Shown one piece after another: positions 1 through 36,224 of a stretch of DNA of 36,224 bases. Below the pieces are notes generated by a model. The model was not told the DNA's origin and searched no databases. It saw nothing but the letters and a program-made list of their open reading frames with translations. Position 1 is the first letter of the stretch. Every line of letters starts with the position of its first letter. Both the position numbers and the translations under genes were made by a program. This DNA comes from Microthyrium microscopicum. Taxonomy: Eukaryota. The stretch lies in contig MU004232.1 in the NCBI GenBank assembly GCA_010405405.1, positions 2,735,038-2,771,261 of the forward strand, written 5' to 3'.

Positions 1-1480
1 TATATTAAGAGTACTACTTAATATATTAATAGGTTTTTTATATACTAAAGTATAAGCTATTTAAGTTTAAACTATAAGTTAATAATTTCTATCTCTATTA
101 TCTATAAACTAATAAACTAGTTTATTACTTTATAATTTTTAGAAAAGTTTTATAGTTTATATTATAAAAGTAATTAAAATTAATCTATAGTTTAAATTAA
201 ACGTAATAATCTAGAACTATTTTAACTAATTTATCTTTATTAAGTACTTCTAGTACTAGAGATATTTATTATTAGTATTATATATACTTTATATATTGCC
301 TTAATATCTAGGATAAGTTAAATTAGGTTCTTTCTAGCTACCCTTAGGTTTTTTAAGGCTTTATTAATCTTACTAGTAATTTAGTTAAAAAGACATAGAA
401 TATAGTAATACTAGGCGGTAAGCTTTACTATAAAGTTAGCTATTATACTTATTCCTTTTATCTTATTAACTCTTCTTAGAATGTTCTATAAAGAGAATTT
501 TATATTAATAGATTTCTTATACTTTAGAACTATAATAAGTCTTAAATTAATTTATTTAAACTTATAGTTATTAACGATTTAGATTAAGTATATACTTAAT
601 ATTCTTATTATAACTCTTTAGTATATTATAATATTTTAAATATAGTTTTTCTTCCTAGATAAAGACCTTTGCTTACTAAGAATAAATATATATTTTATAA
701 TTTGTATTTAATTCTAAGTTTAAGAAATATTTAATAATAAATAGAAAGTAGTTCTATAACTAATATTGCTTTAATATAGAGACTTCGTATAGAAGTATTA
801 GATTCGTAATAACTCTTCTTCTATAAATATTCTAAATAGTAGCTATCTTATAATAACTAAGCTACTAATAATTTAGTAAGAGAAGGTATTAGAGCTTAAG
901 ATAGCTATATATCTTAAATAACTACTATTACTATAATATTATAGAATCCTATTTAGGATATACTTATAAAATAATACTAACTAATATAGTAGGCATTAGC
1001 TATAGTATTAGCTATACTTATATTAAAATTTAAACCTACTCTTGCTCTATATATTAGTATTAAGCATTAATACTTAAATTTATTTTCCTTTAGTACCTTA
1101 TAGTTAGTAGGAGTTAGTATCCTAATAAATTCGCTAATAAAGTACTTTATAATAATTTTAAGATCTCTATCATCTTTAATATAAACTAATAATTTTAGGT
1201 AATACTAAGTCTTAGTTTAGAACTATAAAGTTCTTTTAGTACTACGTATTTAGTAAATTACAAGCTTTAAATACTAGGAGAGTACTAAATAGATCTTATT
1301 AATATAACCATACTTATTACTAGTTATAAGATCTATATTATACTTAGTAATATATAAGTAGGCGTAAACTTTTATTTAATTTTAAAGATATTTAGTACTT
1401 TTTTATTACTAATTTTATAGCTTTACTTTTAGAGCATTATAATTTAGTAATAAATAACTCTCTTATTAAACTTTAGATAT
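1..1480 (-). pseudogene. RIP-degenerate hypothetical protein gene, probably running off the left edge
   Basis: A minus-strand frame over ~180-960 reads protein-like after de-RIP (…LFGMFVEEELLRIQYFYTK…VVKLTAWYHHILCLFDQITSKIDEALENLRVARKNL…). No family recognised. Confidence 0.35.
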
Positions 1481-2887
1481 AATATAATAAGGTAATAATT
1501 AGAATATAGATAAGATAATAAAATAATTTCTTTTATTTTTTTAGTTATATATCATAAAGTTCTTATATTACTAGTCTAATTATATACTCTTATTATTATC
1601 TTTAGAATATAGATTAACCTTTTTTTCTTCTTTTCTTTTCTAGGAATACTACTTAAGTATCTTCTAACGTTAATATTAATCGCTTAAGGTTCATCTTAGC
1701 TTAACTTCTTATTATCCTTTACTTAGTAGTATTAGGCAGCTTTATAAAATTAATCTAAGAGTTAAGCAATTTATTTAATAGTTACGTTAGTAGTTTAATA
1801 GCTTTAGGTAAAATACTTTTATATAACTTAACTACTTTATTAATATAAAGCTATTTAATACTACTTTTGCAACCTTTATAGCTAGTAGCCTTAAAGATAG
1901 TAGTTAAACTAACTTTCACGTTTACTAATTAGTATAGAATTTCATAGTTCTTATTTAGAAAAAACTTAGGTATTACCTTATATAAATTATAAATATAGGT
2001 ATATATACTTAGAAGCCTAATTATAATATATTCTTTAGTCTTTTAGTATTTTATCTTTTAGGCGCTAATTAAGGCTAATAATATATTAGCCTCTAACTAG
2101 TTTTTAGGGTCTCTTAATACCTCTATTATTTCCTTATTATAATTTTCATTAGGAGATAAAAAGAAGGTAAATTAACAACTTATAGGAGGTACGCTATTTA
2201 ATTAATAGGTACTACTTAAGTTATATAAATTAAGAAACGTATAATTATTAGGTATCTATAGTTTTAGCTAAGGAAAGTTATTACTAGTATACTATAAATT
2301 ATTCTCTTTGCCTTACTAAAGAAACATTAACTAATATAATACGTTAAGAAGCTTTCTTCTAAGAGTTAGAACTAATTTAGGTAGATACTAATTATAAAAG
2401 AAGACTAAAGTTTTTAAATCTAGCTATTAGTTACAAAAATAATAATAGCAAATAATATTTTATTACTTAGAATTAAAGTAGCTTATAACTAATAAAGCTT
2501 AAGCTATATTAAGCTTATACTTATAAGAAAGCTAAACTTTATTTAGCTCTAGTATATTTAGAACGATAATAGTATAGTAGCTTAGCTAAAAAGAGAACAA
2601 TTTATAAATCTTTATACTATAAACTAACTTAAAATCCTTAAGGAGCATACATATTTTTTAGTAAGCTATATATAATATAGTATATTTATAGACCTTAAGA
2701 GCTATTATTATATTAACATATTAACTATTTACCTTAGTAATATTATTAATAGTAATATTAGTTTATATCTAGTTATTAGAGTAGAACTTTATAATCTTTA
2801 CTTTTAAAAAGTTAATAGTACTTAGTAAATATATTATATTTATAGATTAATTAGCTATCCTTAAAAGAATACAACTAGGATACTTAG

Positions 2888-2933
2888 CTTAGAAAAAGAT
2901 TAGTTAGAAGTAATATAAAGTAGCGCAACGTAC
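2888..2933 (-). other. Spliceosomal intron (46 nt) in kinase-KilA-N gene
   Basis: Minus strand gtacgt…ctaac…aag. Removing it joins the kinase-containing frame to the KilA-N frame. Confidence 0.7.
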
Positions 2934-3909
2934 TAAAAGGGCTAATCTTAATAAAATAACGTATAGCTATAACTTTAAGAGAAAGACTTAAGATTACTAA
3001 GATAAGATTAGTAAGGCATAATCTATAAGGAATAAAATTCTATAGATAGTATTTACTATTTAAAGAGTAGTATAGATATAAGGGCTATAAAGTTTAGGAC
3101 TAATTTTATATAATTACTTAATATTTAATACTAGTAGGTACTAAGTAGTTTCTAATTCTTTATTCTAGTCTAGATAATATAGAAGTAAGAGATCCTTATA
3201 CTAGTATATTTTCTTAACTATAATTATAGACTATAGTAGATTTATAAATTATTTAGAATAAGTTTTGCTCTATATAATTAGAGGCTAGTATAGGTGCTTA
3301 AGAAAGTATAGGTATTAGTAATTAAAGTAAGAGTATAAGGTACTTTATAGCTAAATATCTCTCCTTTATATTTAATACTAATATTATTTTTAGAATAATT
3401 ATTAATGTATTTTTATTTTCATCTTTAAGTTTAGAAAGAATTATCGTAATTTAGCTAGCATTGTTATTTATACTATACTTTAGTAGTATAAAGCTATATT
3501 TATATATAACTATATTTAGGGACTAGATATTTATAGTAGTTATATAGCTTTACATATTAGGATTAGTTAGGTTTACTATATCTACTATTATAACTTTAGA
3601 TATAGTATATATTATAATTTTATAAAATATTTTAAAATACTTAGCTGTTTTTAATAACCTAAAATTAGCTAGCTTAATATATATTAGATAGTAAGAGTAG
3701 ATAAGAATATTATTAGGCTTAATATCTTAATAATATATTAGTAGTTCCTAAAAATAAAGATATACTAAAGCTTCTAGATTTTAGTAGAGCAAAGGGCTAA
3801 TCTCGTAATCTAATAGCTTCTTTCCTTTTAAACTATTATAAGGTATATACTCTAGAATTAGTTAGGGACTTAGGGCCTTAATTACTAATATAAGGTAATA
3901 TATATATAG

Positions 3910-3957
3910 CTTAGTATTAGGTTAGTAGCTATTAGTATTATTAAATTATTTACTTAT
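3910..3957 (-). other. Spliceosomal intron (48 nt) in kinase domain, donor RIP-mutated
   Basis: ataagt (from gtaagt)…ctaac…aag, located between …MKNLDH and PH… (kinase subdomain III/IV). In-frame length. Confidence 0.65.
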
Positions 3958-5100
3958 ATAGTCTAGATTCTTTATTAGTAATATCTCCTTTCTAAGTATT
4001 ATATTCTAGTTTAGGCTCTAAAAGTTATAATACTACTTAAAAGTATAGATTACTCTAGTACTAATATCTTAGAGACGCATAATAGTAGAACTAGTAGTCT
4101 TTCTTAGCTTTTCTATCTATAGTAGAATTAACTATTATATAGGAGTATAACTATTGCTAGGCGCTACTATTAAAATAGTGCTTTAGACTCTAAGAGCTAC
4201 TAAAGATAGCTAATTAATAACCTTACTATAGTATTTATTAATAGCGTTTTAATAGAGATCTTAAGACGCATACTTTTAGACAATAATCTAGAATTTTAGA
4301 TTACTATAAAGATAAAGAATAATAGTCTTAGTAGCGTCTAAGATTTTATTTCTACTAATAATCTAGGTAAACTATTAGTATTTAGCTTCTACTATTAATT
4401 AGTATTTATACTTATTTAGTAGATTATATATAATAGTTATATTATACTTTAAATAATCTTATACGAATAACTATTACTAATTATTAAAGGCAATATAGTA
4501 GTAGTAGTTACTAATAGATCTAAGCATTTTAGGTAAGATAATATTATAGGTCTCTACGTTACGTCTAAGAGTAATTCCTAGGTAGCTTTTTAGCTTATAG
4601 CTAAATCTTAGCGTAAGGCCTTTACTATAGAACTAAGGCGAAAGATTATTATTAAAGTTACTATTATTAAGAGAAATAGTTATTACTTTGCTAGTAGGCT
4701 TTAGTAAAGTAGATAAGCTTTATAGTAAAGGGTTATATTAACTTTTATTCTTTAAGCGTCGTACTATTTCTTTAGTAAGATTACATTTAGTATTTCTATT
4801 TTAATAAGGGAATAGATATATAAAGACGTCTTCTATTATAACTAGAAATTAGGCTAGGAAAGAAAAAGAAGTTTAAGTAAGAGAAGTTAAGAGGAAAGAA
4901 CATAACGCGCTTAATAACTAAATACGTTTATATTTTAGGTTTTTAAGTACTTAGTATAAGAGCAATATAGTATTCTAAGCGCTATTCTTAATAATTAAGT
5001 ATTAGGATTTAACTTAAAGAAATAAGCTATATAATAGTCTATTTAGCATTAATAGTAAGATATAATAATATAGATATATAAAGAATTAGATAGAGTTAAT

Positions 5101-8100
5101 ATATTTTATTTAGACTTTATAATAATCCTTAATAATTCTACTAGAAGTTACTTAGAGTCTAATATTTAGTATATAAAGATAAAGGATAGAAGTAAGAACT
5201 AGTTATAATAATTAACTTAGATTTTTATTAGTTAGTAGGCTAACGTACTAAAGACTTATTCTTTTAATTAGTATTATCTCTACGTATAATTTATAGTAGC
5301 AATAATATTATATAAACCTTTTAGGGGGCCTATAGTTAATTCTATGTATTTAAGCATACGTAATAGAATTTAGAGAATAAGAGAATATAATAGACTAATA
5401 AATAATGCTCTATATTTCGCTATAGATTATATATCTTAATAATTAAAGTATATTAAGATCTAGCCTATTTTTATACCTTTAGACATAGTCTGCATTAGTA
5501 AGTCTATATAGTATTAAGGACTACGAGTTAGTAATTTAGCTATTAGTAAGATATAGCTATAAAAGTTAGGGCTATAAGTTTAAGTAAGGAAGTTGCTTAT
5601 ATAATACTAAAGTACTAAAATCTACTATATTAACGTTATAACTCTTAGGTACGTAATTTTAACTACTTTAACTAAAGTTCTTCTTATTTACTTAGAGTCG
5701 TAAATCTCTAAAGTAATAGCATTATATATTAACTTAGATCTATTATTTATTTAAGATCTTACTACTTATAGTAATGCTTAACTTAATAACTATTTATAAT
5801 AGTATAGAAGGCTAGTTCTCTCTTACTTTTATTAAGTATATTCTACTAAGATATAGATTAGACTAGTAAGAGTTAAAAATCTAGATAAAATATTAACTAA
5901 GCTTCTTTAAAGGCTATAGTAAGTTAAAACCCTAAATCTTCTCTTCTATACTTATAATTATATACTTAGAAAACAAGTAAAGTAACTATATATTACTACC
6001 CTTTCTTTTTTAGTTAACTTAGACGAAGTTAATACCTAGTTATAGAATCCATCCCTAACTAAAGATTAGTTATACTTTTAAGTACCTTTTTTAGCATTAA
6101 CTTCTTCTAAGTATAATAATTAAGAACAATATATTAAGAACCTTTAATATAAGATAAAGTATTATAATAGGCTTATTAAAGCTAGCAGCTAACTTTTATA
6201 TCTATTTACTCTACTAGAGTATATTATTAGAGACTCTATAGAGTACTACGAGATTATTACTTATTAGTAAAGTAAAACTTATAAAATAGGTAAATAAAGA
6301 TTATTTAGCTAGTAATAAGAAAAGTAGAATAACTTTTAGAAACTATAATAATTTACAAGGAGGTAGAGTTCTTATAAATACTAGCGAAATAACTAGTAGA
6401 AAATATATTTAGCTAAGAATTAGTTACTTATAGATATATAGTAAATAAAAGTATCTACTTAGGCTACTAAGAATAAATAAGAGTATACTTAGATATAACT
6501 TTAGAAAGTATTTAGTAGTAAGCTTATAGTATATATCTTAGGTTCTAACTTAGAATAATATAAATTATAAGAATAGTTTCTTAAGCATTAAGAACTTATA
6601 GAGGATTAAGATAATTTCCTTTTATATATTATAGCGTTAAAAGAATAACTAAAAAGGTATAGATTTATAGTTTTATTTAAGCTCTCTAAGTAGCTATATA
6701 ATTAGGATAAGTTAATAAACTAGATTAAGTATCTTAGCTATTAGTACTAGTAGTATAACTAACGTTTTAAGACTTATCACTACTATTAGAGAAGATATAA
6801 AAAAGCTTAAAATGCGCTTTTAGAAGCGAAAGTCCTTTATTATAAAGAGACAAAAGAGTCTATTTATTACATAGGGTTATTATTAAAATATACTAATTAA
6901 AGACAAATAGCTTAGGAGGGCTAAGAATACGTAATATTAGCTATAGTATTAGTAAAAAGCTAACGATTTAAGATAAGACCTAAAGTCCCACCCTATTAGA
7001 AGTTATAGCTCTTTAAAGCTTAATATATACTAGATATAGAAACAAAGAGATATAAGTTAATTAAAACTCATAACTACTATATCTCTTAATTTATTTAATA
7101 GGCAAAGTCTTATTAAGTAGCTAAGTAAGAGAAAAAAGGCTAATATATCTATATATAATAAATAGTTTGCTAAATTCTTCTTATTAAGTAGAAACTAGAG
7201 GATAATAATATCTTCTATTATAAAGGCGATAGGCAAGGATCTAAGCAGGGCCTATTAGCAGATATTAAAGAGGAGCTATAACCTCTTAACTATAATAGAC
7301 TTATAAAATAGCTAAAGTATAACAGCGAGCCTAAAAAACTTAATAAGTAATTTAAACTAAATTTATATAATCTTGTTGCTGTAATATATAATATTTATTA
7401 TAGCTTATAGGTATTAATAAGAATAAAATTAGTATAGAAGGCAAAAACTTCTTTTAAATAACTCTTAAGTAATTCTAATTAGCCTCGTCATAGTACTAGA
7501 ATAGTATAATAAAATCTATAAGTAAATATAAGAATAGTAAAAACGTAAATACCTCTATAAAAGCTTTTATACTTAATACTAACAAAGTAACCTTCTTCTT
7601 AGAGATTACTATTAAGTAATATAAAGAAGGCTAATAAGAGATTAAGCCGTAGGTACTATAGTATAAATTCTAAAGAAGTAATTAGTATAAAATTATAAAT
7701 ATTCTTATATACTTCTACTTTTATTATATACTATTACTTCCTAAATTAAAAAGCTTATATATTTAATAGAGTATCTTTAGCTAATTAATAGTCTACTACA
7801 CGTCTAGAGAGAAGGATAACTTATTCTATAAAAACTATTAGTTAATATTATCTTAGAGTATATGTCTACATTTTAGAAGAATATATTCTTATCTCTAGCT
7901 AAATATTATTAAGTAGTTTTATAATAAAGATAGTTACACTTAGTCTCTACCTAACTTCTATTTATAATTACTTCTCTTACTCTAACGTAACTTTAGAAAC
8001 TACTTTATAGTATATTAATATATCTAGAGAATTAAGGATATTTATAGATATTCTATATAAGGTATAGCTTACTTTTATTATTAAGTAGAATTATAAGAGC

Positions 8101-9329: not shown

Positions 9330-11500
9330 AGTAAGAAATATATATAACTTTAAAACGTAAGGTTTATATAATAGCTTAATTAAATCTTTCCTATATATAT
9401 TTTATAACTTATAGCTTTATCCTTCTTATTATAGTATAAGGTATTATTAGATACTACTAATTAGTCCTTAAGTACTACTAGTTAGTAGCTTAAGAATACG
9501 CTTCTACTAGTTTTCATTAAGAGTAAAGAGTAAGTACCACCTAGACGTCTATAGAATCTTAATATTAAGGTAGAATCTCTAAGGGCTATTAAACGTAATA
9601 GGCTAGAGTTTAAGTTCTTTTAAAGTTTATCTTCTTAATAAGTAACGTTTATTATATAAGATACTACTTAAAGTTTCTAATTCTTTAAAGTAGATTTACT
9701 CTTAGTACTTTTCTAAAACTTATCTTACTAATAAGTAATATTCATTATATAAGCTACTATTTTAATATTCCTATTTATTAAAGTAGATTTAATTTTAATA
9801 TATATTTATATATTAGGTATTTATAATGTCTTCTTAACTATTATAGTAAAGTTAGTAGGATTAAGTAAAAAGAGAGAAGAAATAAGGCTTAAAAGAATAG
9901 ATTATAAACTTAAATCTCTTTAGATTATAGTTAAGTATCTATCTAGGTAAGTAAATATTATAGTATTTTTATATACTAACTTACTTAATAACTTTATACT
10001 TAATTTAATATTAAGAAAGACCCTAAACTTTTTAATAGTTTATAATTTATATTATAGAATTAGATATATTCTAACTAGCTATTAGCTAGGGTATCTAGCT
10101 TTATTAAGTAAGCATCATAGCTAATTATAGGCCTATTTTTACCTTATCTAAAGCAAAAAGTAATTTAAATGTCTCTAAAGCTAACCTACTTTAATATTCC
10201 TTACTTAGGCTAATTTTTATTTTCTATAATATAAGAACTTCTTAGTTAAAAAGCGTACTACTCTAATGTTAGTCTATACGTAACTCTACTATTAAAGAAG
10301 CTACTTCCTAGATAATCTATGTCTAGCAAATTTATAATCTTTTATAGATAGTCGTTATATTATCCTTTTAAGTAATCTCTTAAAGCCTAATTTACTAGGA
10401 TTATATAAGTAATAAGCATTTTTCCTTTTAAAGAATTATTTATAATAACCTAGGAAATATAGTTTTAGTATAGATTAAAGAGCTAAGAAACTAATCTTTT
10501 ACGCCTACGTCTATATAAAAAGATTAGATTTTTATTATTATCATTCTATCTATTTATATAGCTAACATAGAGCCTATTTAGGTACCTATATAGTACGTAT
10601 AGTTTTCTATAGATACTCTTAGTTTAAAGCTAGTAATTAGTATATAGCTAATATAGTATTTCCTTAAGGTTTAAATTAGCCTTTTATAACTAAAATTAGT
10701 AAGTTACTAAAAATAATAAGGCAGTAGAAATATAATATAGTATACTAATAAAGGCTAACTCTAACTTTAACATACTACTAGCTAGAGAGGTTAAGGTATA
10801 AGAGTATATTAGTAATACTAAGGCCTCCATCCCTATAGGCTATAGCAACTAGCTTATTAATATAACCTTATCTATCTTACTTAAATAAGGTAAAAAATCT
10901 AAGCTACTAGTAAGAGTACTATAGAAAATTATAGTTATTAATATAATACTATTAGTACTTAGCTTACTACTTAACTTACTAATTTTCTTAACTATTAGCT
11001 AGCTCTTACAAGGTTAGAAATCTATATATATTATTTCTATACGCTATTTTTTATAAGCTTTATCTTAAGAGATATAATCTACGCCTATAAACTATACTAC
11101 TTTCCTAATAATCTATATATATAGCTAGCTTACTAATATAGATCTAAGTATAATTCTTCTAATAGCTACTCTAAAGAGAATAAGTAAAATACATATAAAC
11201 TCTACTATATTACTAATATTAGTAAAGCGTAACCCCTTTAAAGGATAGAAGAGAGCTATAAGATAAAGTATAAGCTAATGCGTGTTATTTAGTAATAGTA
11301 AAGCGTTCTATATAGATAGATTTACAACTATCTAAGCTTAATAGTAGCATAATTATAACGTTCGTTATTAAATAGGTAAGCTATATTTCCTTAAAATTCT
11401 TTTTTATTTTATACTACTTTTATATATAACTATTAACCTTTTTTATTAGCCTTAACGTCTAAATCTCGTCTCAAAATATTATTAAGACTTTTATTCTAAG
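9330..11500 (-). pseudogene. One or two RIP-degenerate hypothetical genes
   Basis: Long protein-like minus frame ~10000-11280 (…GKPYVLHRYPNRLYVGYVNG…LLDMDYLGSSFFDGGVTYGLTLEW…) and a second at ~9330-9720. No family recognised. Confidence 0.4.
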
Positions 11501-12438: not shown

Positions 12439-13662
12439 ATAACTACTTTTATATTAACCTTCTTTACTAAAATGCTATCTACTACTACAAGAAATTTTAT
12501 TAAGCTACTTTCTACTCTTTATTAGCTATATTATATCTTTATATTAGAGTTTTTATAGTATAAAGAAGTTACTCTTAGCATATATAATTTTATAAAGTAT
12601 ATCTTAGTAGGCTAGCAACCTAACTTATCTTATAAGCAATTTAATAAGGTTAATATAGAGTTTATAATTAAATAGTACTATACTTAGTAGTATATATTAG
12701 AGGAAATCTCTTACTTACGCGAATTTAACGTCTTAGTTAAATAGTATTAAATTAAATTATAATAGAATCTATATAATAGTTATATAATTAATAATAAAGA
12801 AAGAAACATTCTTAGCTTTAGTTATTAGTACTAATACCTACTCTAGCTTAGAAGCTATGAAAGTAAGTATAAAATAGCTAGTAGAATTTAATTTCACTAT
12901 ATAACTAAGGATTATTATTAGGTATTTATATTTAAAATTAGCATAATATTATATATTAGTATAAAGTATAAAAACTTAGGAAAATAGCTATTTATTTTTT
13001 AGTATAGTATCTATAAGATATATATTAAGGCTAAAAGCCTTATCTTACTAGAATCTTACTTAGAGTAGATAAATTATATTAATAAGTATAAGAAAGGACT
13101 TAGTAGTTCTACTTTATAGTATAGCAAGCCTAGATAGGCTATAATATCTAATTAGGAGATAGCTAAGACTTTATTTCTTAGATACTATACTAAAATTAAT
13201 TATATCTATACTATAGATAGAGTATAGTAGAAGCTTATTTTTAGGCTTTTAAGCGTAGATTAATAGTTTTAGTAGCTTTCGTAATAGAATCTTAGGAAAC
13301 TAGGTATCTTAGTACTTAAAAACTAGTCTCTTATATTAATAGCTAACGTCTCTAATAGAAAGTCTATAGAAATATTATATAATTATTAAGAGTATAATAA
13401 TCGTATCTATTTTTAGAGAAGATAGCTTAATAACTATTACCTAAAGTATAAATACTCTTTTATTAAAAGCGCTACTTCTAAAACTAGAACTTAAAAGTTA
13501 CTATATTTATTAAAGTACTTAAGTCTATAAACTATTTATAAAACTTAAAAAAGAAGCTCTTCTAATTATATAGTAATAGTAAGGTACGACCTAGATAAAT
13601 ACGTATTACTATATATAAGTAATTTTATCTCCTTAGTATATAAATTAATTATCTAAACGTAG
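12439..13662 (+). pseudogene. RIP-degenerate hypothetical gene (~400 codons)
   Basis: Single plus-strand frame whose stops are TAA/TAG, all reversible to CAA/CAG/TGG/CGA (…VLEEISHLREFDVLVE…LLWLGSYESKYE…VMVRYDPDKYVLLH…). Confidence 0.5.
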
Positions 13663-16380: not shown

Positions 16381-16699
16381 TAAGTTTATAAAGCGAATAG
16401 ATAAGTAGTATATTTATAGTATATAAATACTATATTCTAAATAATTCTATAGCTTATTATAAAGATTAGTATTCTAAATCTATAAAGTTACTTCTTATTT
16501 TAACGTAAGAACTAGAACTCCTTATAGGGTTATAGTCTATCTTAGTTTATAGAATAAGATTACTTATAGAATATATTTAATAAGTAAAGATAATACTTAA
16601 GTTAGTTATAACGTATTTATTAGAATTATTAGTAGTAATTCTAAGTTAAGGTATAAGAAGATTACTATAAGGAGGGTTTATTTAATACTACTAAGCATT

Positions 16700-17649
16700 A
16701 TAAGTATAATATTCTATCTATACAACCTACTATTTAAAAGAGGTAGTATCCTAAGATATATTTATCTTTATTCTAAGTTAATTCTTTATAACTCTAGTAT
16801 TAGTAGGTTTAGAATTGCTTATAATAGTAGAATCTTTTATATTTAATAAAATGCTATAAGTAGAAAGGCTTAGATATTCTTTATTATAATAAGTAACTAT
16901 CTTTTGCTTACTAGTAAAGCATTTTAAATAGTATAGGTATTAGAATAGTTTAAATATCTTAAAGTATTTTTCCTTATACTTACGTAATAGTGTTTTATAG
17001 TTAAAAAGTTTTAGATACTTACGCTTAATACGGTAAGTAAAAGGCTATAATATATAGAATTAGTAATTTAAAAGCTTACTAAGTTAGAGGATAATTTTAC
17101 TTAATATAATTAATATTTATAGAAATTAATACTTAGTATATTGCATTTTACTATTATATAAGTAAGGCCTTTTGCTAGATAAAGTTAATAAGTAATAAAA
17201 TTATAGCTAAGCCTACAACTTACTCTTTTTGTAGCTAGAGAAGTATTAGTAGTACACTTTTATTTATAGTTAAGGATCTAAATTTTATATACTTACTAAC
17301 GTAACTTGCAGTTTTTAGTAATCTTTAATTTAATTTTATAGTTTAATTTTACTTTTATATCTTTACTATATTTGCTATATTCGCTATATATATCTTTTAT
17401 TTTGTTTTAGTACTTTTTAACGTATTTTTATAGATTTATTATACGTCTATAGCGCTAACTATAAAGCTAATATTTTAGTAAAGAACTTATTTAGTATAGC
17501 TATTCTAAGTAGCTACTTACTACTACTTTGCTACGACATAGATTCTTTTTTTGTACTATAATAATAGTATTATAACGCGCCACGTAAGTAAAGTATTCAT
17601 TAAGTAGACTTTCATTCTTTTCTAGCGTCTATTTAGGTTTAAGTAGTAT
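16700..17649 (-). pseudogene. C2H2 zinc-finger protein (three fingers), multi-intron RIP pseudogene
   Basis: De-RIP of 16872-17040 gives PFAC-x5-C-x12-H-x3-H followed by KPFQC-x2-C-x12-H-x4-H. An upstream finger NLC…C GQRYRRVTNLRKHVEKH is split by an intron at 17467-17520 (gtaagt…tag), and another gtaagt…ctag intron lies at 17175-17223. Confidence 0.8.
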
Positions 17650-18840: not shown

Positions 18841-19426
18841 TAAATATTATTTAGGATACTATAGTTTAATTTAGTATTAAAAGAGTTAGATTTAATACTA
18901 ACTTAATATAAGATAGAAGTATTTAGTAGGAATAGGATAACTTGTAAGTTATAAGGACCTTAATTCTATATATACTAGTCCTTATAGTATAGGTAATACT
19001 AGAATTAGCTATATAGCTAGCCTTAGTATTTAGTAGTATTTAGGATCCTTTGTTTAGTAGCTAGCCCTATTTAAAAGTAACGTGTACTATAATGCTAAAA
19101 TATCTTATTAAATAGTAGGTAATTTATAGGACTAAGTATTTTAGCAATATTTACTTTAGTATACAAGTTAGAAATAGTTATATAGTAATAAGAAGGCTTA
19201 GATAGAATATTTAATTTAAGAGAAGACTATTTTTCTATACTTTGCTATTTAAGATAGTACTTAATGCTTTAGGTAAGAAAGTTAAATAGAGAATTTATAT
19301 AGAAATATACCTAATATATAGGAGTACCTTTAATAGTAAGATAGAAACCTTAATACTATACTAATATAAATATCTAAATAGACGTAGCTTTCTACGTTTT
19401 CTATACTATATAGAAGAAAAGGGTAG

Positions 19427-20851
19427 TTATAGTTTACTTCTTGCTAGTTTAATCGTAATCTCCTATTATAATTAGGCTTAAGCTTAGGATTCTACTTCTA
19501 TAATTACTTTATATTAAACCTTATACTTTAAAAGAAATCCTTATACCTATATAGTAAATAGCTTATTAATTAGTAATTTATAAGTAAAGTCTTAGGCATT
19601 TTATTTTATTACCTCCTTCTAATATATAAGTTTAAAAAGGCTTATATTATTTTTAAAGGTAGTAAGCTTAAATTTATAATAAAAATTTATATATCTAGAT
19701 TAAGTTAAAGCCTTAAGTACTTTTATTTTCTTTAGGTTATTAGTAGTTATAATAAGAACTTATCTTAGTTAATTACTAGTTATATTATTAATTACGTTTA
19801 ATAAACTAGACATTAATAATATAGATAGTACTAGGCTAATATTTATTTCTTAGCTACTCTAGCTTTTAATAGAGGTATTAATATTCTTTATTAGTAGAAG
19901 ACTATAAGGCTTAAGTTTATTAAGAAGGTGCTTAAGCTTAGCTTTACTTTTAATATTCGTTAGAGAGAGTTCATATAGAATTAGTCTAAATATAGTTACT
20001 AGCTCTTTACTAAGGCTAGTTTTCTTAGTTTTAAGAGGGCTATAGAAGAGATAACCTTATTTATAAAATATATCTTAATGTCTATATAGCTCTTTAGAGG
20101 CTAAGAACTCTATTAGATTTATAATAACTACGTTTTTTATTACTAGAGATATAATAACTATATTATAAAGGTATAAGCCTCTAATATATTTAATTTAAGG
20201 AAACTAAGATATATAAGTTTAGTTATAGAACGCTAGTATATATATTTTAATATTTTTCGTATTTTTTTTAAGGTCTTAATTATTTATATAATTTAATAGA
20301 TTATGAATATAACCTAGATAAAGTAGTGCCTAAATAATAAGAGGTAGGATAATACTATTGTTACTAAATAACTTATTTAAAGAAATAAGAAGAAGATAAA
20401 AGAAAAATATACTATAGTTAAAAAAAGTAATATACTATTAATATTTAAGTTTATAACTAATTATTTGCAATAGCTTATAAATCTAAGAATTTAGCTAGTT
20501 CTTTAAGTTAGGAATAACTAGTTCTAAGTTACTTTAAGAGAAAGCTTAGAGATATTATATAATATTCTAGGAGGTAGAGTACTAATCTATATATATATAA
20601 TATAAGCTATTATTTACTACTATTTCTATAGATGCTATAAGGTAAGGATAGACTCTTAATAAAACGTATAGTATAATAACTATACTAATAATTATTAGCG
20701 TAATATCTTAATTAATTAACTTATTAATAGTATTTCTTAGGATATTAGCAACCTATAAAAGGCCTAGAATAAGAAAGCTAAGAATACCTAGAGAGCTTGC
20801 TAGCGCTACGCGCTCTAGAGTATACTCTATAGTACTATTTATAGCGTTTAT
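19427..20851 (-). pseudogene. BCS1-like AAA+ ATPase (RIP pseudogene)
   Basis: One continuous frame with an N-terminal LSFLIPG and hydrophobic TM-like segment, then MASIEI…Y…W (BCS1_N-like). This is followed by RGYLFHGPPGTGKTS-like Walker A (~20015-20060), LLLMEDID Walker B, SGLLNVID, RVLIMTTN…EALTRSGHVD and …QVQGFLL. Confidence 0.92.
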
Positions 20852-20952
20852 TTAATAAATAAAATTAAGTATAAGAGTATATTTAGTAAAGATTAGTAAG
20901 TATATTATTAGTTGCTATATTTTAAGGAATATTACGTATTTTAAATAATTAT

Positions 20953-21423
20953 ATAGATACCTATAGCCTAAGAGAGAAGCGTACTAGAATACTTATACTA
21001 AACCTAAACTATAGATAGAACCTATTTTGTTTAATATATAGGTCTAACAATATTCTATAGAATACTATATATAATAATAGAGAAGCTATATTTCTTTACG
21101 CACAATAAGTATAGTAGCTTAGGTGCTATTATAGGCTATATAGAGAAGAAATTAATAGGTTAACAAAGTATTACGTTATAGTAGCCCCTATAGCTATAAA
21201 ATTAGTAACTTAATAAAAGAGGTTAGCCTATAGTAAGGACGCTTTAGTAGCTTATATTACGTAGCTACGCTATTATTTATACGTAATTAAGAAATCCTAG
21301 CGTATATTTAAGATAAAATCTATATAGAGAACTTAATAACTATATTTATATACGCTACTTAGATAGAGGCTAATATTTAGTTTATTATTAAGGAGAATTT
21401 ATTATACGTTATTTATAAGTTAG
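20953..21423 (+). pseudogene. Small RIP-degenerate hypothetical gene divergent from BCS1-like gene
   Basis: Plus frame MDTHGPR…LFCSMCGSDN…RLAYSKDALVAHITQLRHHL…. Confidence 0.35.
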
Positions 21424-22649: not shown

Positions 22650-25520
22650 TATTTTAATAGTACTTACTACTATCTTAAATAAGTTATTATATAGGGTTTA
22701 AAGTAATTAGTATAGAGTTTAATAGAAGCTAATCTAAACTTTAATACTCTTTTACTAACTTTAAGAGTAGTTATAAATAAAATCCTATCTAAGTTCTTCT
22801 TAACCTACTTTTAGTTTTTTATCTAAGTAACTTCTACTAGTTAAGAATCTTCTTCTCTTTATTTTTAGATTATAATAGTGTATTAAAGTACGTAAAAATA
22901 TATTATTCTTTATAGTTTTATACTAAAGACTCTATAATATAAGTAAAAAAGAAGATATAGTAATTTATTATTTATTAGAGTATAGTAATATCTCTTTTAA
23001 GGATTATTATACTTTACGTAGCTTATTTAACTTAGCTTAGATTAGGAAAGTATTTCTTACTACGCTTTATAAAACTATTTTTAGTACTAATACGTAGATA
23101 TAAGTATAAAGTAAGCGAGATAATATAAGGGTAGCTCTATATAAAAGAACTATATAAAACTATACTAATATATTTTATAGTTAGGATAGTTAATTAATAA
23201 GACTACCTATTAAGGTACTTATAAGAATTATATTCTTTAGTTTAGATAGAGTAGATATTATTTATCTTATATTATTTTATAAGGAGTTATAGCTTCGTTT
23301 ATATAAAAAGACTTAAGAAGAGGTAGTAAAAAATTATATATAGTAGGCTAGTAATTTCCTTACTTTCTCTTCTAAGAAGTCCTCTATAGTAATTCCTAAG
23401 CTAAGAAATAGTTAAGGAGCCTATAGTAGGTCTTTTAGCCTTAATACTCTCTTTAGAACTAAAGTTATTATAGTTATTAAGATTATAGAACTTATTAAGT
23501 AGTTATACTTCTTATATAATTTGTATATTTACTATACCTTAACTTAATTTAAGTTAAAGGTAATAATTAGATTCGTCCTTAAGCTAATATCTTTATCTCT
23601 TTTACTACGCTTAGAAATCCTTTTCTTTTAGGTATTATAGATTTTACGCAATATAATAGTAAAGTTATACGTATAGCTTAAGATAATTACTAAAGAAGTA
23701 TACTTAGCGTATTTATATAATTTACTAATATTTAGTTTTAGATAGTTTATTATTTTTATAATATAGCTTTCTATAAGTACTAGTCTATTGTGGCGCGAGA
23801 AATAGGTAGGAAATTAACTAGATATAATGGTTTCTAGTAATAAACTTAAGAGGTAGGTAGATATTAATAATAGATTTACTTTCCTTTTAAGGCTAGATGT
23901 AGAAGTAATAGATTATATAGAGCTAAATAGGTTCTTTCTTTTATATAATAAAGATCTAATAATTTAAATAATAAAGTCTATATAATCTTTTCGTATTAAT
24001 ATAGGAAATTTTGCTTCTATTTTATTATAATTTAATGTTATATATTAATACTATTATGTAAGTAATAATTGCCTAAATAGACTTGCTTTACTAATATATT
24101 GTTTAAAGTATTATAGTCTTAGCAATATAGTGCGTATTATTTTCTTAATAAATCGTACGAGTAAGTAATAATTATATACTTAATAGGGATTAATAACTTT
24201 ATTATTAGGCATATCCTTATCTCTAGGATAGTCTAAAGAAAGAACTATATTGCTAATTAAGGCCTCCTATTCTAATCTTTTAACTAGTCTTATTAAAGTA
24301 GACTTAAAGAAGGCTAGAAGCTAGGTATATTTTAATTTATTAGGTACTTAAGTAGATAGTTTTTAGAGCTTAAGGCTCTACTTAATTTTTGTACTTCTAT
24401 ATTTTGTTTATAACTATTTAGCTATCTTCTTTCTTAATATTATAATAGTCTAGATTATTCTTCTTCTAGGTTTAATTAGTATATATCTATAACGTAGTAA
24501 AGTATTTCTAGTATTATACTTTATATTAAAGTAGGGCATTAATTTAATAAAACTTATTCCTTTCTAAAAGCGTATTACTTTAAAGTTGCTTACTAATATA
24601 AGACGAGGTCTAATTTTAGTAGCTAAAAAGGAGAAGCTAGTACTATCTTAAGTAGCTATAACTTCTTCATTCTTATTAATATTAACTATATTTAGTTCTT
24701 CTTTATTTAAAGTACACTTAACTATAATTTCTAGGTTTCTACTTATTAGCGTAAATATAACGATAATATATTAGAATAATACGCTTTATTAGCTAGAAAA
24801 TAGAGGTATAATCCTTAAGTCCTTACTTAATTCTATAGTAGTATCTTTTATACTTAATTATAATAGTAAGAATATAATTAATATAGAGCTTTTATTAGCA
24901 AAGCCTAATATTAAAGAGTTTTATAAATAATTAATACTAAGGATATAATTATTATATTTAGAAACCTATAAGTAATAAGCTTTATTAGTTTTACTTAAGA
25001 TGTTGTAAGTTATAAGAAAGAGATTAAAGACTAACGTTCTAGTAGTAGTACTTCTTCTAAAGGTCTTAGGTAACCTAATCTCTAGATTAGGCGTAGCCTA
25101 GTCTAAGTTATCTATATCTAAAACCTAATTAGCTATAGAAGCTTAGTACTTTTAGTAAAAGAAGCTAATTCCTTTTAGTTATTACTATTACTTCTATAGC
25201 TTAGGATAAATTAAGCTAAGATATAAGCTTTATTAAGTAAGTAGACTTCTATATAATTATTAGTATAACTAACTATTTAATAGAGCAACTTTTCTAAAAA
25301 TAGCTTTATAAATGAACTTAAAGAGCTTCATAGCTATCTTTAACTTAGCTACTAAGAATAGTACTATCTCTATAAGAAGGACCTAAATTATTATATAATT
25401 AACTAAGCCTAAGTATTTTTTGTAGACTATTTTTAGTAGGTCTTAGAAAATAAGGTTACTAATTTAACTTCTAATTAACTTTAGTATAAAATTTAAAAGC
25501 TAATCTATAACTATTCATAA
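22650..25520 (-). pseudogene. Long (~950 codon) apparently intronless hypothetical gene (RIP pseudogene)
   Basis: One minus-strand register stays protein-like for ~2.9 kb (…TLVFNLFPVTYNISG…EEELDVVDIDENEEV…YLLVRFIEKMMRTMLPR…FPTYFSRHNRPVLVE…GIAMEDFSEEKVRELPAYY…). No family recognised. Confidence 0.55.
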
Positions 25521-26782: not shown

Positions 26783-28702
26783 CTATAATAATAAAGGTAG
26801 ATAAATATTATCTAATTAGTAACTAATCTATAAAAGTCTCTCTTTTCTTTAAATCTTTATAATCCTATTTTTAAGTTATATATTGTCCTCTAAGTCTATA
26901 AAATAATCTTTAGAGTAGTAGGACTCTATAAAAAGTAAGCTACGTAGATAGAGGTTCTCTAATAGTAGATACTAGTCTATTTTCTTCTCTATATAATATA
27001 GAGTCTCTTAAATTCTTTAATTAAATCTAATAGATTTTAATAATTAAGTAAAAAATATATAGAGGTTATTTTATAGAATATTCTTTAAGATATATTAAAT
27101 CTTATTTTTTATCTCCTTTAATACGCTTAGACTATAATAAAGGCGTATTATCTATAGAACAAAACTAAGCATAATATTTATATATAGGTAGATATTTTGC
27201 TTATTAATTCGTACTAATATAATAGTAAGCATACTAAGGAAAAGCTAAGATAATAATTAAATTAATTTCTTAGTATAATTATTAGTATGTACGTTTAAAT
27301 ACGTATCTAGCGGGGCTAATACGTAAGCTCTTATCTTTTAAGTTAAATTAAGCAGTACTAATTTAGCTAAGTAGAAGGCTTATAATAGTTTCGTAGGATT
27401 ATCAAACTAGAATAAGTTAGTAATAGTTATTCCTTTAATAAATACGCCTACTAAGAGCTATTTTTAGTTAAATAGCTAAATACTAAGAAGTTAAAGAAAC
27501 CTATTTATTAAATATATTTCTAGGATATCTTATTTATAGAAATTCTTTATAATTATTTCTAGGAATGCTACGTTTAATTTTAATAAAAGGTTTATATCTT
27601 ATTTGTATAGAACTAGATTAATAATATACTTTACTAGACTTCTATATATTAGAAGAAAAAGATTAATAGAGATTATAGCTTTTATAAAAAGAAAGATCTT
27701 ATAAAGAATACCTTTAGATATAAGAGTAAGGTTATAGTATAGGTAGCTCTAGCTAGGAAGTTAATTAATCTCTATAATAAACTAGAAAGTTATAATATTT
27801 ATCTAGATAATACAATATTTAGATATCCTATTTTTTAAGGCTAATCTAGAAATAGATAGGTTACTTAGAAGCTCTATCTAGTATAGTATAAAGAAAGGTA
27901 CTAATTCTAAGAGGTAGCCTAAAAATCTAAAGACTAGCTAAAAATAGTAAATTACCTACTCTTTAGAATTAGGTAGACACTTTAAGAGAGTATCTAGAAA
28001 GGTATAAATATTATACTTCTAGAGCCTTATAATTATATAGTACTTATATATTACTTAATTTAATAAATTTAATACTTTTAACTTTTAGGATAGTAGCAAA
28101 AAATCATAATAACTATCTAATAATTTTTTATATTTATATATTAAGTTTTACTATATATTATACGTTATTTAGTTTTAGTAGCTAGTAATATATAAGATAG
28201 CTTTAACGTATTCTTGTTTAAAAAGACTAATTTAATAATAAAAGTCTCTAATAGCATTATAAAGATTTATTTATAAACTTAATGAAGTAGATAGAAGTAA
28301 ATTAATTCCTACTACCTAAGAAGTAGTAACTTCCTAGTTTTGTTTAGGCGTTAAAGATTATAGATCTATACCTTTAAATTCATTTATAGTTTCTATTATA
28401 AAAGACGCGTCTTTAAGATTTATTAGTTCCTAAAGTATATTAGTAGAGATATATTATTAATAAATACGAAATACTAACGAGTTATAAGTAATCCTATACT
28501 ACCTACTATTTTAGTATAATAAGACCCTCTATAAAATTGCCTTATAAATATGGAATTTCTAGTTACTTTAAATCCTATAGGGTCTATATTTAGGCCCTTA
28601 GTAGTAGAGATTATAATAATATTAAAATAAAGTACTAGAGTGCCTTTTTTAGCTTCTAGGAGCTTTTTCTAGTTAGTAAATTCTAGAACTCTATTTATAT
28701 AT
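26783..28702 (-). pseudogene. Est1/Ebs1/SMG7-like (14-3-3-like TPR, Est1 DNA/RNA-binding type) protein, RIP pseudogene
   Basis: De-RIP gives WQNLMHEHEKLLDSYYDFLL…KYHMIVRLWKYDIHTFLDTL…LP…LLESVPFFVPYWMELLGDLSISRLALE…LPGQSHLYYNLA…NIYPHVNIMLSFV…NIPWNNL…ENLYLRGL…RKERLLWIG. This is colinear with the Pezizomycotina Est1-like family pattern as I recall it (WQALIALHRTLLHEHHDF…RMWRHGIHSFLELL…WIECLGDL…GRLYHHLA…ERILWLG). Confidence 0.88.
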
Positions 28703-28789
28703 CTAAATATATACTTATTTAGAATAGCTTATTATAGAAAGATAGGTATTTTCTTTTATAGTAAGATAATAACTTTTAAATTAGTATAA

Positions 28790-31587: not shown

Positions 31588-32185
31588 ATGAAATAAATTC
31601 TTAAATTCTAAGATACTATAATAGATAACGCTTTATTAACTTTTTTAAGCTAAGGAATAAAAGAGTTTATAATAAACGCTAGTATCTTTAAAAGTAAAGC
31701 TTTAAGTAGATTTTAATAGGTAGAAAGCTAGGAATAGTCTAATAACTTAGGATATTTAATATATATATACTTAATAGTAAGTAAAACTCTTATTAGAATT
31801 AGAATAAGTATATTTACTAAGGATATAGAAAGACTCATAGCTTCTAAGTAAATAGCTTATAAGAGGGACAATTATATACTTAGTATATTTGTCGTACTAG
31901 GGATATTAAACTTATCTTAAAGTCTAAATATAATTATATTTAATAAGTAGTTTAATAAGGTAACTAGAGATAGCTTTTTATACTATTAAAGGTATAAATA
32001 AATTTATTTTCTTACTTATAGGAACTAAAAAAAACTTAAAAGATTTACTATTTACTTTAATAAGAATATAGAGTAGTATATAGTTATATATTAAAATAAT
32101 AGCTATATAAAGAATTAAAATATAAGTACGAGATATAAATTATATAATTATTAAATTGTATCTTCTTCTCTCTTAAAGCAGTAGT
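31588..32185 (+). pseudogene. RIP-degenerate hypothetical gene
   Basis: Surviving ATG at 31588; frame …EEFVVNAGIFESEAL…ERDNHVLGVFVVPG…. Confidence 0.35.
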
Positions 32186-32520
32186 AGTAGTATATATAAT
32201 AGGATTCTATTTATATTATTAGCTAATTCTAGCTCTAGAGCCTAATCTAGCTTCTGAAGCTATATCTAGATTTTAGTCTTTTTAAAATAAGGAGAGACTA
32301 GATCCTTATTGTATATGTACTTAGCTTTATAGTCTAAATATCTAAATATATTATTTAGGCCTTAAGCTCTAATTAGCCTAGTTACTAAAAAAGGAGAGCT
32401 ATTAATATAGTATAATTTACCTATAAATTAGAGATATATAGAAAACTTCTTTAAATATTTAAATTAGATTATAGAACTAATTTAATAAAGCATTTAATAT
32501 ATTTTTATAGATAACTTAAG

Positions 32521-35500
32521 ATAGTTATCTAGAATAAAACTAGAAGAACCTCGCTAGAGCTAATTAAAGAGCGGGATAAACGCTAGGTCGCTTTTATATA
32601 GAACGTAATAAATAATGCTAGTAGCTTAAAACTTTCTACTTTAATTAATTAGTAACTTCTTAAGCTTAAAGTAGAATAGTAAGGAAATTACTTAGTCTTT
32701 AATCTAGTTTAGTATAGTTGCAAGTTTAGAATCACTATAGGCTTATATTTCTAGTACTAGAATATAATTAACCTTATTTAATAATAGTTCTAGCCTCTAA
32801 AGATTAATATCTAGGTAATAAAACTTATTACTAGTTTTAGGCTTTCTATTACTTATAATAGCTTGCTAGTCTTTTTAACCTTATATAGTTTTCTAGAATA
32901 CTTAGAAATAACGTAATATATAGCTATTCTTTAAGGAATCCTAATATCGTAAAATAAAGTTATTATAATCTAGCTAAAAGTATCCTATATCTAAAGAGAC
33001 TACTAAATATAGCTTATTTATATTTAGGAATATTACTTCTGCTTCTACTAGAGTAATATATATTAGATTATTTTAAAGAATATTAGTATTTTAATATATA
33101 TTATATCTATATATATTTTTAGGAGTAAAAAACCTATATAGAAAATTATATAATTAGCTTTATAGAATAAGAAAAGAGATTTTAGCTTTATCCTAGGGCT
33201 ATAGAAATAGATCTAGCGTTATAATACTTTAGCTTTATATATATATTAAGATAAAAGATACATATAGTTTCTATAATAGTACCTTATATAATTATTTTAT
33301 TTTTATAGCCTTATATCTTATAGTATTTAGTACTATGTTAGAAAAGAGTTAGACTATAAATACTATAACTATTAAAATAAGTACTAATAATATTATAGTT
33401 TATAAAAATATAAAGACGTAGTTTATTAAGAGTTATAATAAGAATTACTATTTTAGTCCCTACCTTAATTATAGGTAATATATTAGTTATAGTAATAGCC
33501 TTAAAGGCTTTCTATAAGGTACTTTTAATATTAATTATAGAGTAGAGATAATCTATAAATATAGCTATTAGATAATAGAATATAAATAGAAGTTATAAGC
33601 TAAGTAGTGTTTATCTCTTAAAAGTAGTAGTAGTATATAATTTAAATATACTAATAGCTTAATATATTAGCTAACCTTACAATAAAGTTAAAGTAATATT
33701 TGCTTCTAAAAATTTTAAATCTATATATATAATATTAGGGAAAATAGAGCTAATTTAAACTTATACTAATTATAAGTTAGAAGATTCATAAGATAGAAAG
33801 TAGTAGTTAAAGATAGTCCTATAGTAGTTTAATAAAAGTAAGTAGAAGAATTCTATGTACGCTACTTCTATTAATATATAGTATTATAAGAATAGTAATT
33901 AAAGGATAAGTTTTAATATAGATATTATTTATTACGTTATTATAAAGTAGATATATAGTAATCTAGAATAAGAATAGGTTATATAATTATATATTTAACA
34001 TAAATATTATTATATAAATCTTATAGAGTAAATATCTATAAGGTAAAGTATATTATAGTTAGTAACGTAAGTATATTAAGTAAGTTTTAAGAGTATATAG
34101 CTTTAACTAGAAATTCTTAAACTTAATAATAGTAGTAGTATAGATTTTAGCTATTAGCTTAGTTTTAAGAAGAAATATAAGTTGCTAAAAGTACGTCTCT
34201 ATTTATACTTAAAGTTATTATAAAAATATACTTAATAGAATTATTAATTTTGGCGTATCTATAAGCTTTATTATAATATAAAGTTTAGAGATTATTTTTC
34301 TATAAAGCGTTTATAAGATAATACGTAAGGAGAATACTATTCTTTATTAGTATTTATTAATAGTAAGTAACGTAATTAAAGGCTTAACTTATAAGGAACG
34401 TTAAGAGGATAAAAGTTTAAGAATATTAAAAATGCTATTATTAGAATACTAAAATTAAATAATATATTAGAGTTTTTTATAAATTTTAAGAATGTTATTA
34501 CTTAATTTAAGTATTAACTTAATAGCAAATTTGTTTACTAAGATATTATAATAAAGTCTAAGGAACGTAATTTATTTAGATAGAACTATTTATAAGTTAA
34601 TATAAAGAACTTATTAAAATAATAAGTAGTTAATAAATAAAAAGTTTTAAATCATTAAATCTAATAAGCTTTGCTTATATTTATAAAAAGAGTATTAACT
34701 CATCTAAACGTAATATTACTATTACTCTACGTAATAAGATAAAGTACTTAGAATTTATTATAGAATCTATATTTATACTTTTTTTAAATTAGATTTAGAA
34801 CTTAAGTATAAGTCTCTCTTTCTATTCTTTAAGTATACTTATTTAGTACTATAATTATACTAGGAAAGAGTATTTATAAAAGTATAATAAGTATAGGAGT
34901 TTTAATCTAATTTATTAGTTACTCTATAATACTTATAATACCTTTTACGTCTATTATAAAGAAGATAAAGTTTATAGTAAATAAAAAAAAAAGCTAAGAA
35001 TAGATATATAATAATAAAATAGTAATAATACTTAAGGTCTAGAAGTTATATTTTTTAATAAAGTAGTAAAGCTTATTAGTATAGCTTCTTTATAATATTA
35101 TACTTCTTTAAGAGATATCTCTATTTATAACTAGAATTAGTATATTTAGTAGTTAAAATCTAAATTCCTTAAAGAGGTAAATCTCTCTATATACTTTTTA
35201 GCTATCTAGGTAAGTATAATATAGTAAAATCGTTTATAGAAAGTAAATCTTATTAGTATTACTAATAAAAACTAAAAATACTAGTCCTTTAGTAGTATAA
35301 GACTTATTATATAGTAGTTACTTTAGTCTATTTAAATAAATAAATAAAGCTTAGCTATTCTTACTAGATATTCTTAGCTATAAATTATATAGATAGCTAT
35401 TTATTCTAGGATGTTCTTATAACACTAAATAAGGTAAGTAGTCTTAAACTTTTAACTTATAAATAAGAACTAAAAAGGCTTCTAAAAATACTATAATAGA

Positions 35501-36224
35501 TAGTAAAGCCTAATTTAGTACTTTTATTAGTTTTCTAGGCTATAAGTAACTCTATAACTATTTACTATAGTTTTTAACTTATAATTAACTATTAATATAT
35601 CTTAATAAGTTAAAGACTATATAACTATATAGAAAGTAACTTAATTATTTTAGACCTTTTCTAGATTTTATACTTATTTACTCCCTATTTAAATCTAAGA
35701 TTTAAAGTACTAAAATAGAGTAGTCTAGTAAGCTAAAATTTGCCTAAACTAAGTATACTTATATCCTTTATAGAAAGTTTAGATTAGCTAGGTTTTATAA
35801 GAGCTACCTAATATTATTTAGATATTTTATAATATTTAGTATTTATACTAGATTAGTATACTTACAAGCTCTAAGAAATATAATTAATAATAGTATTTAG
35901 CTAAGCTTTCTTATACTCTACTATTATTACTATTACTATTATAAATTAATTAGTAGAGAATTAGTTTAAAAAACTTTGCTAATTTTTAAGCTTTCTACTT
36001 AGTATATTTAAGCTACTAAAATACTAGCTAGGAGCTTCAAAATACTTATTAATTAGAAGTAATTTTCTCTAAGTCTTATTTTAATTTAAGAGGATATAAC
36101 TTAGTAAAGAGTAAATATAGATATAACTTTATAGAGGTTTTAAGTATTAGTAGATAGTCTTATATAGTTAAGTTACTACTATAGCGTGCAAAGAAAGCTA
36201 TAGGTTAGTATATTAATACTATCT
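32521..36224 (+). pseudogene. Large multi-intron hypothetical gene, truncated by right edge (RIP pseudogene)
   Basis: Candidate introns at 33838-33881 (gtaagt…tag), 34067-34110 (gtaagt…ttaactag) and 34191-34238 (gtacgt…tag). Exons read SFDVDI…(possible 1-nt frameshift near 33930)…IHEVKHIVVGN…IFLQSVYK…LYQHL…GIHIYTFFK…FPF…LSRRR, and one register then continues to the window end. The 32521-33837 part may be a separate gene. Confidence 0.55.

Follow-up and report, generated by a model that had tools for sequence, protein, structure and literature searches.

A stretch of 36,224 nucleotides from the fungus Microthyrium microscopicum (assembly GCA_010405405.1, contig MU004232.1, forward-strand positions 2,735,038 to 2,771,261), here called the window, is saturated with the marks of repeat-induced point mutation (RIP) over its entire length. 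On balance, the window probably lies within a large RIP-affected region whose source was ordinary DNA with genes, 36 kb or more in length, and not classical transposons. The duplicated DNA in question is possibly a derelict Starship, a RIP-inactivated member of the giant cargo transposons that are moved by a DUF3435 captain. This reading is carried by the uniformity of the RIP signal, by the relics of two cellular genes, by a coding signal far above chance and by the lack of transposon hallmarks and internal repeats.

The window contains 14,009 A, 14,287 T, 4206 G and 3722 C (GC content 21.9%), and the GC fraction over all 2-kb windows stays between 0.185 and 0.237. RIP is generally recognized by a product index (TpA/ApT) above approximately 0.89–1.15 and a substrate index ((CpA+TpG)/(ApC+GpT)) below approximately 0.75–1.03. 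For the window as a whole, these indices are 1.67 and 0.123, with a composite of 1.54. The 19 bins (eighteen of 2 kb, and the remaining 224 bp as the last) all agree in this respect, with product indices of 1.52–1.88 and substrate indices of 0.05–0.18. The dinucleotide odds relative to expectation follow the same pattern, with CA at 0.15 and TG at 0.10, while TA is at 1.45. A large RIP-affected region is a contiguous stretch of more than about 4 kb that lies beyond both thresholds and has a positive composite index, and this describes the window along its entire 36 kb. The RIPped block continues past both ends, which makes the window an interior fragment. The possibility of a mitochondrial origin was rejected, as a depletion of CpA and TpG to 0.10–0.15 is a signature of RIP and no mitochondrial gene was matched.

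RIP acts on duplicated sequences, and its leakage into neighboring DNA extends over a few kb only. Because RIP requires duplication and a saturation of 36 kb exceeds such leakage, a single nucleus would once have held two or more copies of the stretch or its parts. The number of copies needed is small. In a two-copy simulation starting from 50% GC, RIP limited to CpA lowers the GC content to 38% while the identity between the copies never falls below 94%, and RIP of CpA, CpG and CpC lowers it to 21% with an identity that never falls below 84%. The limit for recognition by RIP lies at roughly 80% identity, and since the simulated identities remain above this limit, two copies suffice for saturation. 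This agrees with a cross involving two copies of the Starship Hephaestus, for which the published report describes RIP-type mutations over the whole length of the element and the loss of cargo functions in nearly all progeny of the two-copy strain (PMC10104507). A first-pass annotation, made from the letters of the window alone, had already described the uniform saturation, which the indices bear out in every bin, and had proposed that the whole block was once repeated. The latter is supported by the extent of the saturation, whether the duplication took in the stretch as one or all of its parts separately. That annotation had also concluded from the saturation that the block was multi-copy, which is more than the simulation and the Hephaestus cross call for.

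In the proposed course of events, a haploid premeiotic nucleus would have contained two or more copies of the stretch, and the RIP machinery would have detected the duplication. Over one or more sexual cycles, C would have been converted to T on both strands until CpA and TpG had nearly disappeared. Each gene would have been destroyed by missense changes and stop codons, of which the Walker A and Walker B relics and the conversion of a kinase HRD motif to YYX-D, described below, may serve as examples. The block is now most likely silent, AT-rich heterochromatin without coding function.

The gene content was assessed by translating all six frames of the whole window through stops, with an X at each stop, and scanning the translations against Pfam. 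The plus strand was scanned in the spans 1–6300 (E ≤ 0.01) and 6001–16800, 16501–27300 and 27001–36224 (E ≤ 0.05), and the minus strand in the spans 1–12300 and 12001–24300 (E ≤ 0.1) and 24001–36224 (E ≤ 0.05). A further 72 short, stop-poor segments (11 + 61) were scanned as well. Two domain families surfaced, AAA and protein kinase, both on the minus strand (Table 1).

The AAA relic matches the Pfam family AAA (PF00004) with an E-value of 7.8e-5 and 23.6 bits (cut-off 21.2). The AAA domain occupies positions 19622–20434, with the match itself at approximately 19721–20050. A PDB search with the full 454-codon frame finds the mitochondrial chaperone BCS1 (6sh3_A) at an E-value of 5.9e-10 over amino acids 273–421 (approximately 19721–20167), and the codon-phase chi-square of the relic is 39.0 (6 degrees of freedom). 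In the PDB alignment the Walker A region reads gylfysplktkkts against GYLLYGPPGSGKTS, and all departures from BCS1 in both Walker motifs are G-to-A or C-to-T changes, that is, transitions of the RIP type. With an AAA module that retains recognizable Walker A and Walker B motifs and is closest to BCS1, the locus can be regarded as confirmed, at the level of sequence comparison, as a dead BCS1-like AAA ATPase gene. The module aligns to yeast BCS1 with both Walker motifs in register, as would be expected of BCS1 and its fungal AAA paralogs, but it differs from these in its in-frame stops, in the ruin of both motifs by transitions and in the lack of a detectable BCS1_N domain. The 270 in-frame codons upstream gave no match to BCS1_N/AAA_assoc, which RIP decay may hide. 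The relic may descend either from a true BCS1 ortholog or from a paralog. The minus-strand frame that spans the relic is coding-like for 889 codons, from 20896 to 18230, and runs for approximately 460 codons past the C-terminal side of the BCS1-like part; it exceeds the length of BCS1 proteins, whose chains in the PDB count 456–480 residues. This additional part (18225..19621) is either a C-terminal extension, a fused domain or a neighboring gene that lies in the same frame by chance; its best PDB match, ribosomal protein L24 at E 0.43, was judged to be noise.

The second relic is probably a dead protein-kinase gene, as suggested by its Pfam match and motif remnants. Pkinase (PF00069) is matched over profile positions 14–146 of 263 (approximately 3649–4086) with an E-value of 0.001 and 18.9 bits, and again in the long-frame scan with an E-value of 0.005. 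The best PDB match is CK2 alpha (E 0.057, subdomains V–VIb), and the codon-phase chi-square is 28.5. The remnants of the catalytic loop and the DFG motif, the latter 20 residues past the catalytic D, are those expected as RIP products of the kinase consensus motifs HRDIKPxNIL and KLADFGL.

Beyond these two genes, the window carries a coding signal that was measured against Markov shuffles (20 for the low-stop count) and frame-scrambled real sequence. Low-stop segments number 25, against 4–12 in the 20 shuffles, and together cover 29% of the window; the highest low-stop score is 17.5, against a shuffle maximum of 12.3. In a base-by-phase test that uses all four letters, 32 of 118 windows of 900 nt pass the 5% point, against 2–13 in the shuffles. 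Furthermore, the two relics validate one another: a codon-position model derived from the AAA relic assigns +13.0 to the sense frame of the kinase and −12.9 to −57.2 to its other five frames, while the model derived from the kinase assigns +19.6 to the AAA sense frame and −2.6 to −41.9 to the others. Used as a periodicity detector, the model yields 18 segments in 11 loci that comprise 11,801 bp, or 33% of the window, whereas the yield from Markov shuffles is 1.9 segments on average (maximum 6) and that from frame-scrambled sequence 0–4 loci. Models from a single relic yield 15 loci (control 0–8) and 10 loci (control 0–4), mostly at the same places. When two or three false loci are allowed for, about eight coding relics are detectable. 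Such a number is far above chance and would fit the usual gene density of fungi once decay is considered. The AAA gene lies in the longest coherent run of coding-like sequence, which measures 2.7 kb.

These numbers fall well short of the first-pass description of about 20 gene relics filling the window wall to wall. Of the families named there, the BCS1-like AAA gene stands firmly and the kinase probably, but KilA-N, C2H2 and Est1 were not recovered by Pfam at E ≤ 0.05–0.5 in the window. A RIP-tolerant C2H2 pattern occurs 86 times in the window, against 46–85 times in 20 shuffles, which was judged not to be an enrichment, and no tandem fingers were found; a stricter pattern occurs 11 times, against 3–13. 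The remaining, sub-cut-off Pfam rows were dismissed as compositional noise: TPR_DENND3 (0.028), ARM_TT21 (0.031), DUF1829 (0.073), DUF5671 (0.029), SUR7 (0.19), Pyr4-TMTC (0.00099), Solute_trans_a (0.012) and Rrn7_cyclin_N (0.24). The same annotation had recognized neither transposon genes nor typical Starship auxiliary genes, and here the scan concurs. Neither the six frames nor the 72 low-stop segments gave a match to RVT, rve, RNase H, DDE, hAT, MULE or Helitron families, nor to DUF3435/integrase, DUF3723, NACHT, patatin or ferric reductase.

Repeats are equally scarce. In a blastn comparison of the window with itself (word size 11, no masking), the only matches besides the trivial one lie at 9613–9800 and 103–134, and no internal repeat longer than 100 bp was found. 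When the sequence was collapsed to purines and pyrimidines, which makes RIP differences disappear, words of 28–40 letters were shared neither directly nor in inverted orientation. By these two results, the 36 kb hold no pair of long terminal repeats (LTRs), no terminal inverted repeats (TIRs) and no repeat family that is represented twice. None of the marks of a nest of LTR retrotransposons or DNA transposons was thus encountered, be it reverse transcriptase, RNase H, integrase, gag or transposase, LTRs or TIRs, or recurring families. The two self-matches themselves are a 97-bp adjacent direct repeat with 77% identity (9613–9800) and a 32-bp near-perfect palindrome (103–134). Tandem repeats are confined to short AT-rich rows.

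Taken together, the cellular genes, the further coding-like loci, the lack of transposon hallmarks and the lack of internal repeats are better explained by one long, gene-bearing repeated unit than by a nest of transposons. Several observations weigh against a gene-bearing origin. The kinase match scores below the cut-off that Pfam itself sets (31.7 bits), and three-base periodicity of G+C alone does not rise above the shuffles (13 of 239 windows, against 0–11). Names are available for only two of the coding-like loci, which number about 11, and the "loci" could be something other than genes; for the nine unnamed ones, no family emerged from the Pfam, protein-representative or PDB searches made on them. 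The strongest of these, 23037–25397 on the minus strand, yielded no relative at E ≤ 0.001 in a set of 1.84 billion representative proteins, and three others (18225..19621, 6311..7285 and 1683..2888) are without a credible relative in the PDB. Finally, translations with X at each stop are an insensitive probe of RIPped DNA, so that old transposon relics could have been missed.

A rival origin is an old transposon graveyard, in which the window would be a mosaic of individually repeated elements, each present once and too decayed for recognition, with a few captured or neighboring fragments of host genes. Most large RIP-affected regions in Pezizomycotina consist of transposon relics, nine of the 11 coding-like loci belong to no recognizable family, and the searches were blunt: a word-indexed protein search with the AAA relic returned nothing, as a word index fails on RIPped translations, and a PDB phmmer search with a 5000-residue frame returned no match, queries of that length losing even the kinase. 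The AAA and kinase relics, however, are of a length and conservation similar to those of transposon proteins and are still detectable, yet no reverse transcriptase, RNase H, integrase or transposase appears in 36 kb. Neither do LTR pairs, TIRs or any family seen twice, even with transitions collapsed, and the longest coding-like run, 2.7 kb, has the AAA gene inside it. A graveyard is considered rather unlikely. An AT-rich regional centromere or pericentromere built from RIPped relics, an identity that would be compatible with the other origins, appears improbable. Some centromeres of Sordariomycetes are tens of kb long, about 80% A+T, non-repetitive and gene-free, and consist of RIPped relics. 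The window resembles these in its 78% A+T over more than 36 kb and in its lack of internal repeats and live genes, and scans of the window gave no tRNA and no Rfam match at E ≤ 0.1. Nothing points specifically to a centromere, however, whose identity is not readable from sequence, and a genome has few centromeres and usually many RIP-affected regions.

Within the preferred reading of a duplicated, gene-bearing block, three origins come into question. The interior of a derelict Starship is a tentative candidate: such an element would have reached two copies by transposition or by a cross and would then have been RIPped, with its captain and ends outside the window. No other known source of large repeats with genes is as common in these fungi as derelict Starships. 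The window shares with them a long block of host-like genes, inactivated by RIP throughout and free of classical transposon hallmarks, and in size and cargo it corresponds to a Starship, with at least 36 kb that hold the BCS1-like AAA and kinase relics and nine more coding-like loci. It differs from them, as an interior fragment, in having no relic of the DUF3435 captain or of the auxiliary families (DUF3723, ferric reductase, patatin-like and NLR/NACHT genes) in the window at E ≤ 0.05–0.1. Such auxiliary genes are frequent in Starships but not obligatory, and that an interior fragment lacks DUF3435 is uninformative as to the end of the element; the scan may in any case overlook RIPped genes. 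In the open-access literature searched, no paper joined Starship with BCS1 and transposon, or with KilA-N. One study reports the experimental RIP of a whole two-copy Starship and calls remnant Starships common (PMC10104507). Another recommends "derelict" or "degraded" for RIP-mutagenized Starships, uses "derelict" for RIP-mutated copies, and reports that several families prefer AT-rich sites and that many Starships lie in AT-rich sequence (PMC11162782). The overlap between Starships and RIP-affected regions has furthermore been analyzed in Pyricularia (bioRxiv 10.64898/2026.01.28.702382).

The second origin, somewhat less probable still, is a duplication without mobility, of a chromosomal segment or of part of an accessory chromosome, that was RIPped to saturation and of which one copy or both persist as junk. 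Both named relics belong to ordinary cellular families, two copies are enough for saturation, and neither the Pfam scan nor the self-comparison revealed a hallmark of mobility. In classical Neurospora genetics, any duplicated DNA that is sufficiently long and identical is mutated, genes included, and the window resembles such duplications. Large segmental duplications are, however, rare and unstable in RIP-competent fungi, and intact progenitor genes were not found, although the probe used, a transition-tolerant sequence of 47 letters from the Walker A region that had no hit in metagenome contigs, is a poor test. Very improbable, finally, is the third, the undescribed giant element envisaged by the first-pass annotation, a captain-less cargo carrier or virus-like integrated element with a kinase, a BCS1-like AAA protein and many orphans, its genes mostly on one strand, that was killed by RIP. 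A gene-bearing block without marker genes of known transposons or Starships would suit such an element, as would the low stop density that favors the minus strand at most coding-like loci. There is no positive evidence for it, however: the KilA-N, C2H2 and Est1 content behind its supposedly "nucleic-acid-centred" gene set was not reproduced, no viral hallmark gene or recombinase was seen in the window, and the strand preference is confounded by the excess of G over C and of T over A on the plus strand. The results so far do not demonstrate a novel type of mobile element, and RIP-degraded cargo elements have already been described.

A gene-bearing duplicated block would set the window apart from the large RIP-affected regions, or AT-rich isochores, of Pezizomycotina as defined by RIPper. 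It resembles these in its contiguity over more than 4 kb, its extreme indices, its GC content of about 22% and its lack of live genes. Such regions, however, usually hold recognizable relics of retrotransposons or DNA transposons that recur within tens of kb, whereas in the window none were found and the nameable relics are cellular. As it stands, the window is another case of RIP erasing gene-bearing duplicated DNA, and it indicates that a large RIP-affected region need not be a transposon graveyard. Proof that it forms a single long repeated unit, with ends of its own and without a DUF3435 captain, would point to fungi having giant cargo carriers of a second class. Fossils of this kind are invisible to gene predictors and standard homology searches, and the cross-validated codon-phase test is a cheap means of counting the coding relics of RIPped DNA when homology is of no help.

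Table 1 Features of the window (positions are those of the 36,224-nt stretch; a dot marks features without an assigned strand)
Feature	Position	Strand	Basis and remarks
Large RIP-affected region	1..36224	.	GC, product and substrate indices uniform over 19 bins
Coding-like periodic locus	1683..2888	.	No Pfam match; no PDB match at E ≤ 0.5
Probable dead protein-kinase gene	3325..4848	-	508 codons, 34 in-frame stops; Pfam match and motif relics
Putative DFG-motif relic	3655..3675	-	KLANFRL (KLADFGL type)
Putative catalytic-loop relic	3700..3735	-	YYXDIKPNNILI (HRDIKPxNIL type); H->Y and R->stop, RIP-type
Coding-like periodic locus	6311..7285	-	Phase test and model; no Pfam or PDB match
Coding-like periodic locus, weak	10861..11331	.	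Found by two of three models
Coding-like periodic locus	12763..13497	-	Codon-phase model; no Pfam match
Coding-like periodic locus	16478..16915	.	Fewer stops in the plus frame (5 in 143 codons); no Pfam match
Coding-like locus sharing the frame of the AAA relic	18225..19621	-	Codon-phase model; no Pfam match
Dead BCS1-like AAA ATPase gene	19622..20983	-	454 codons, 25 in-frame stops; Pfam and PDB matches
Walker B relic	19877..19900	-	LLLIKNIN where BCS1 has LLLEDID; E->K, D->N, D->N
Walker A relic	20015..20041	-	SPLKTKKTS where BCS1 has GPPG[ST]GKTS
Longest low-stop coding-like locus, family unnamed	23041..24918	ambiguous	Low-stop score 17.5; no Pfam match
Coding-like periodic locus, weak	27098..27811	-	Found by two of three models; no Pfam match
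Coding-like periodic locus	31927..32862	-	Codon-phase model; no Pfam match
Coding-like periodic locus	33206..33658	.	6 stops in 151 codons on minus; no Pfam match

Among the unnamed loci, the one with the highest low-stop score shows the difficulty of assigning a strand: the minus frame at 23337–25097 has 587 codons with 30 stops and a codon-phase chi-square of 29.9, and the plus strand is also low in stops there. Over the window, stop density favors the minus strand at approximately 8–9 of the 11 coding-like loci. Such co-orientation would be unusual in an ordinary fungal chromosome, but the strand call is confounded by strand composition, which tilts the stop counts in favor of the minus strand, and by a phase signal that looks alike in sense and antisense. 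Public sequencing runs that contain the stretch comprise four DNA runs, from one sample and one study, and no RNA run, which says nothing on expression.

The residual base composition bears on the sequence contexts in which RIP acted. T follows 2862 of the 3722 remaining C (77%), A precedes 3213 of the 4206 remaining G (76%), and CpG stands at 0.68 of expectation. As simulated RIP limited to CpA halts near 38% GC when started from 50%, either other contexts have been hit as well or the ancestral sequence was already AT-rich; the RIP of the source organism therefore probably also acts on CpG and CpC, unless the ancestor was AT-rich. The plus strand is skewed toward G over C (4206 against 3722) and T over A, which may stem from RIP events that favored one strand or from the orientation of genes. 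The cumulative GC skew climbs almost throughout the window, and the skew reaches its peak of 0.238 at 33001–35000, where the GC content is lowest (18.5%).

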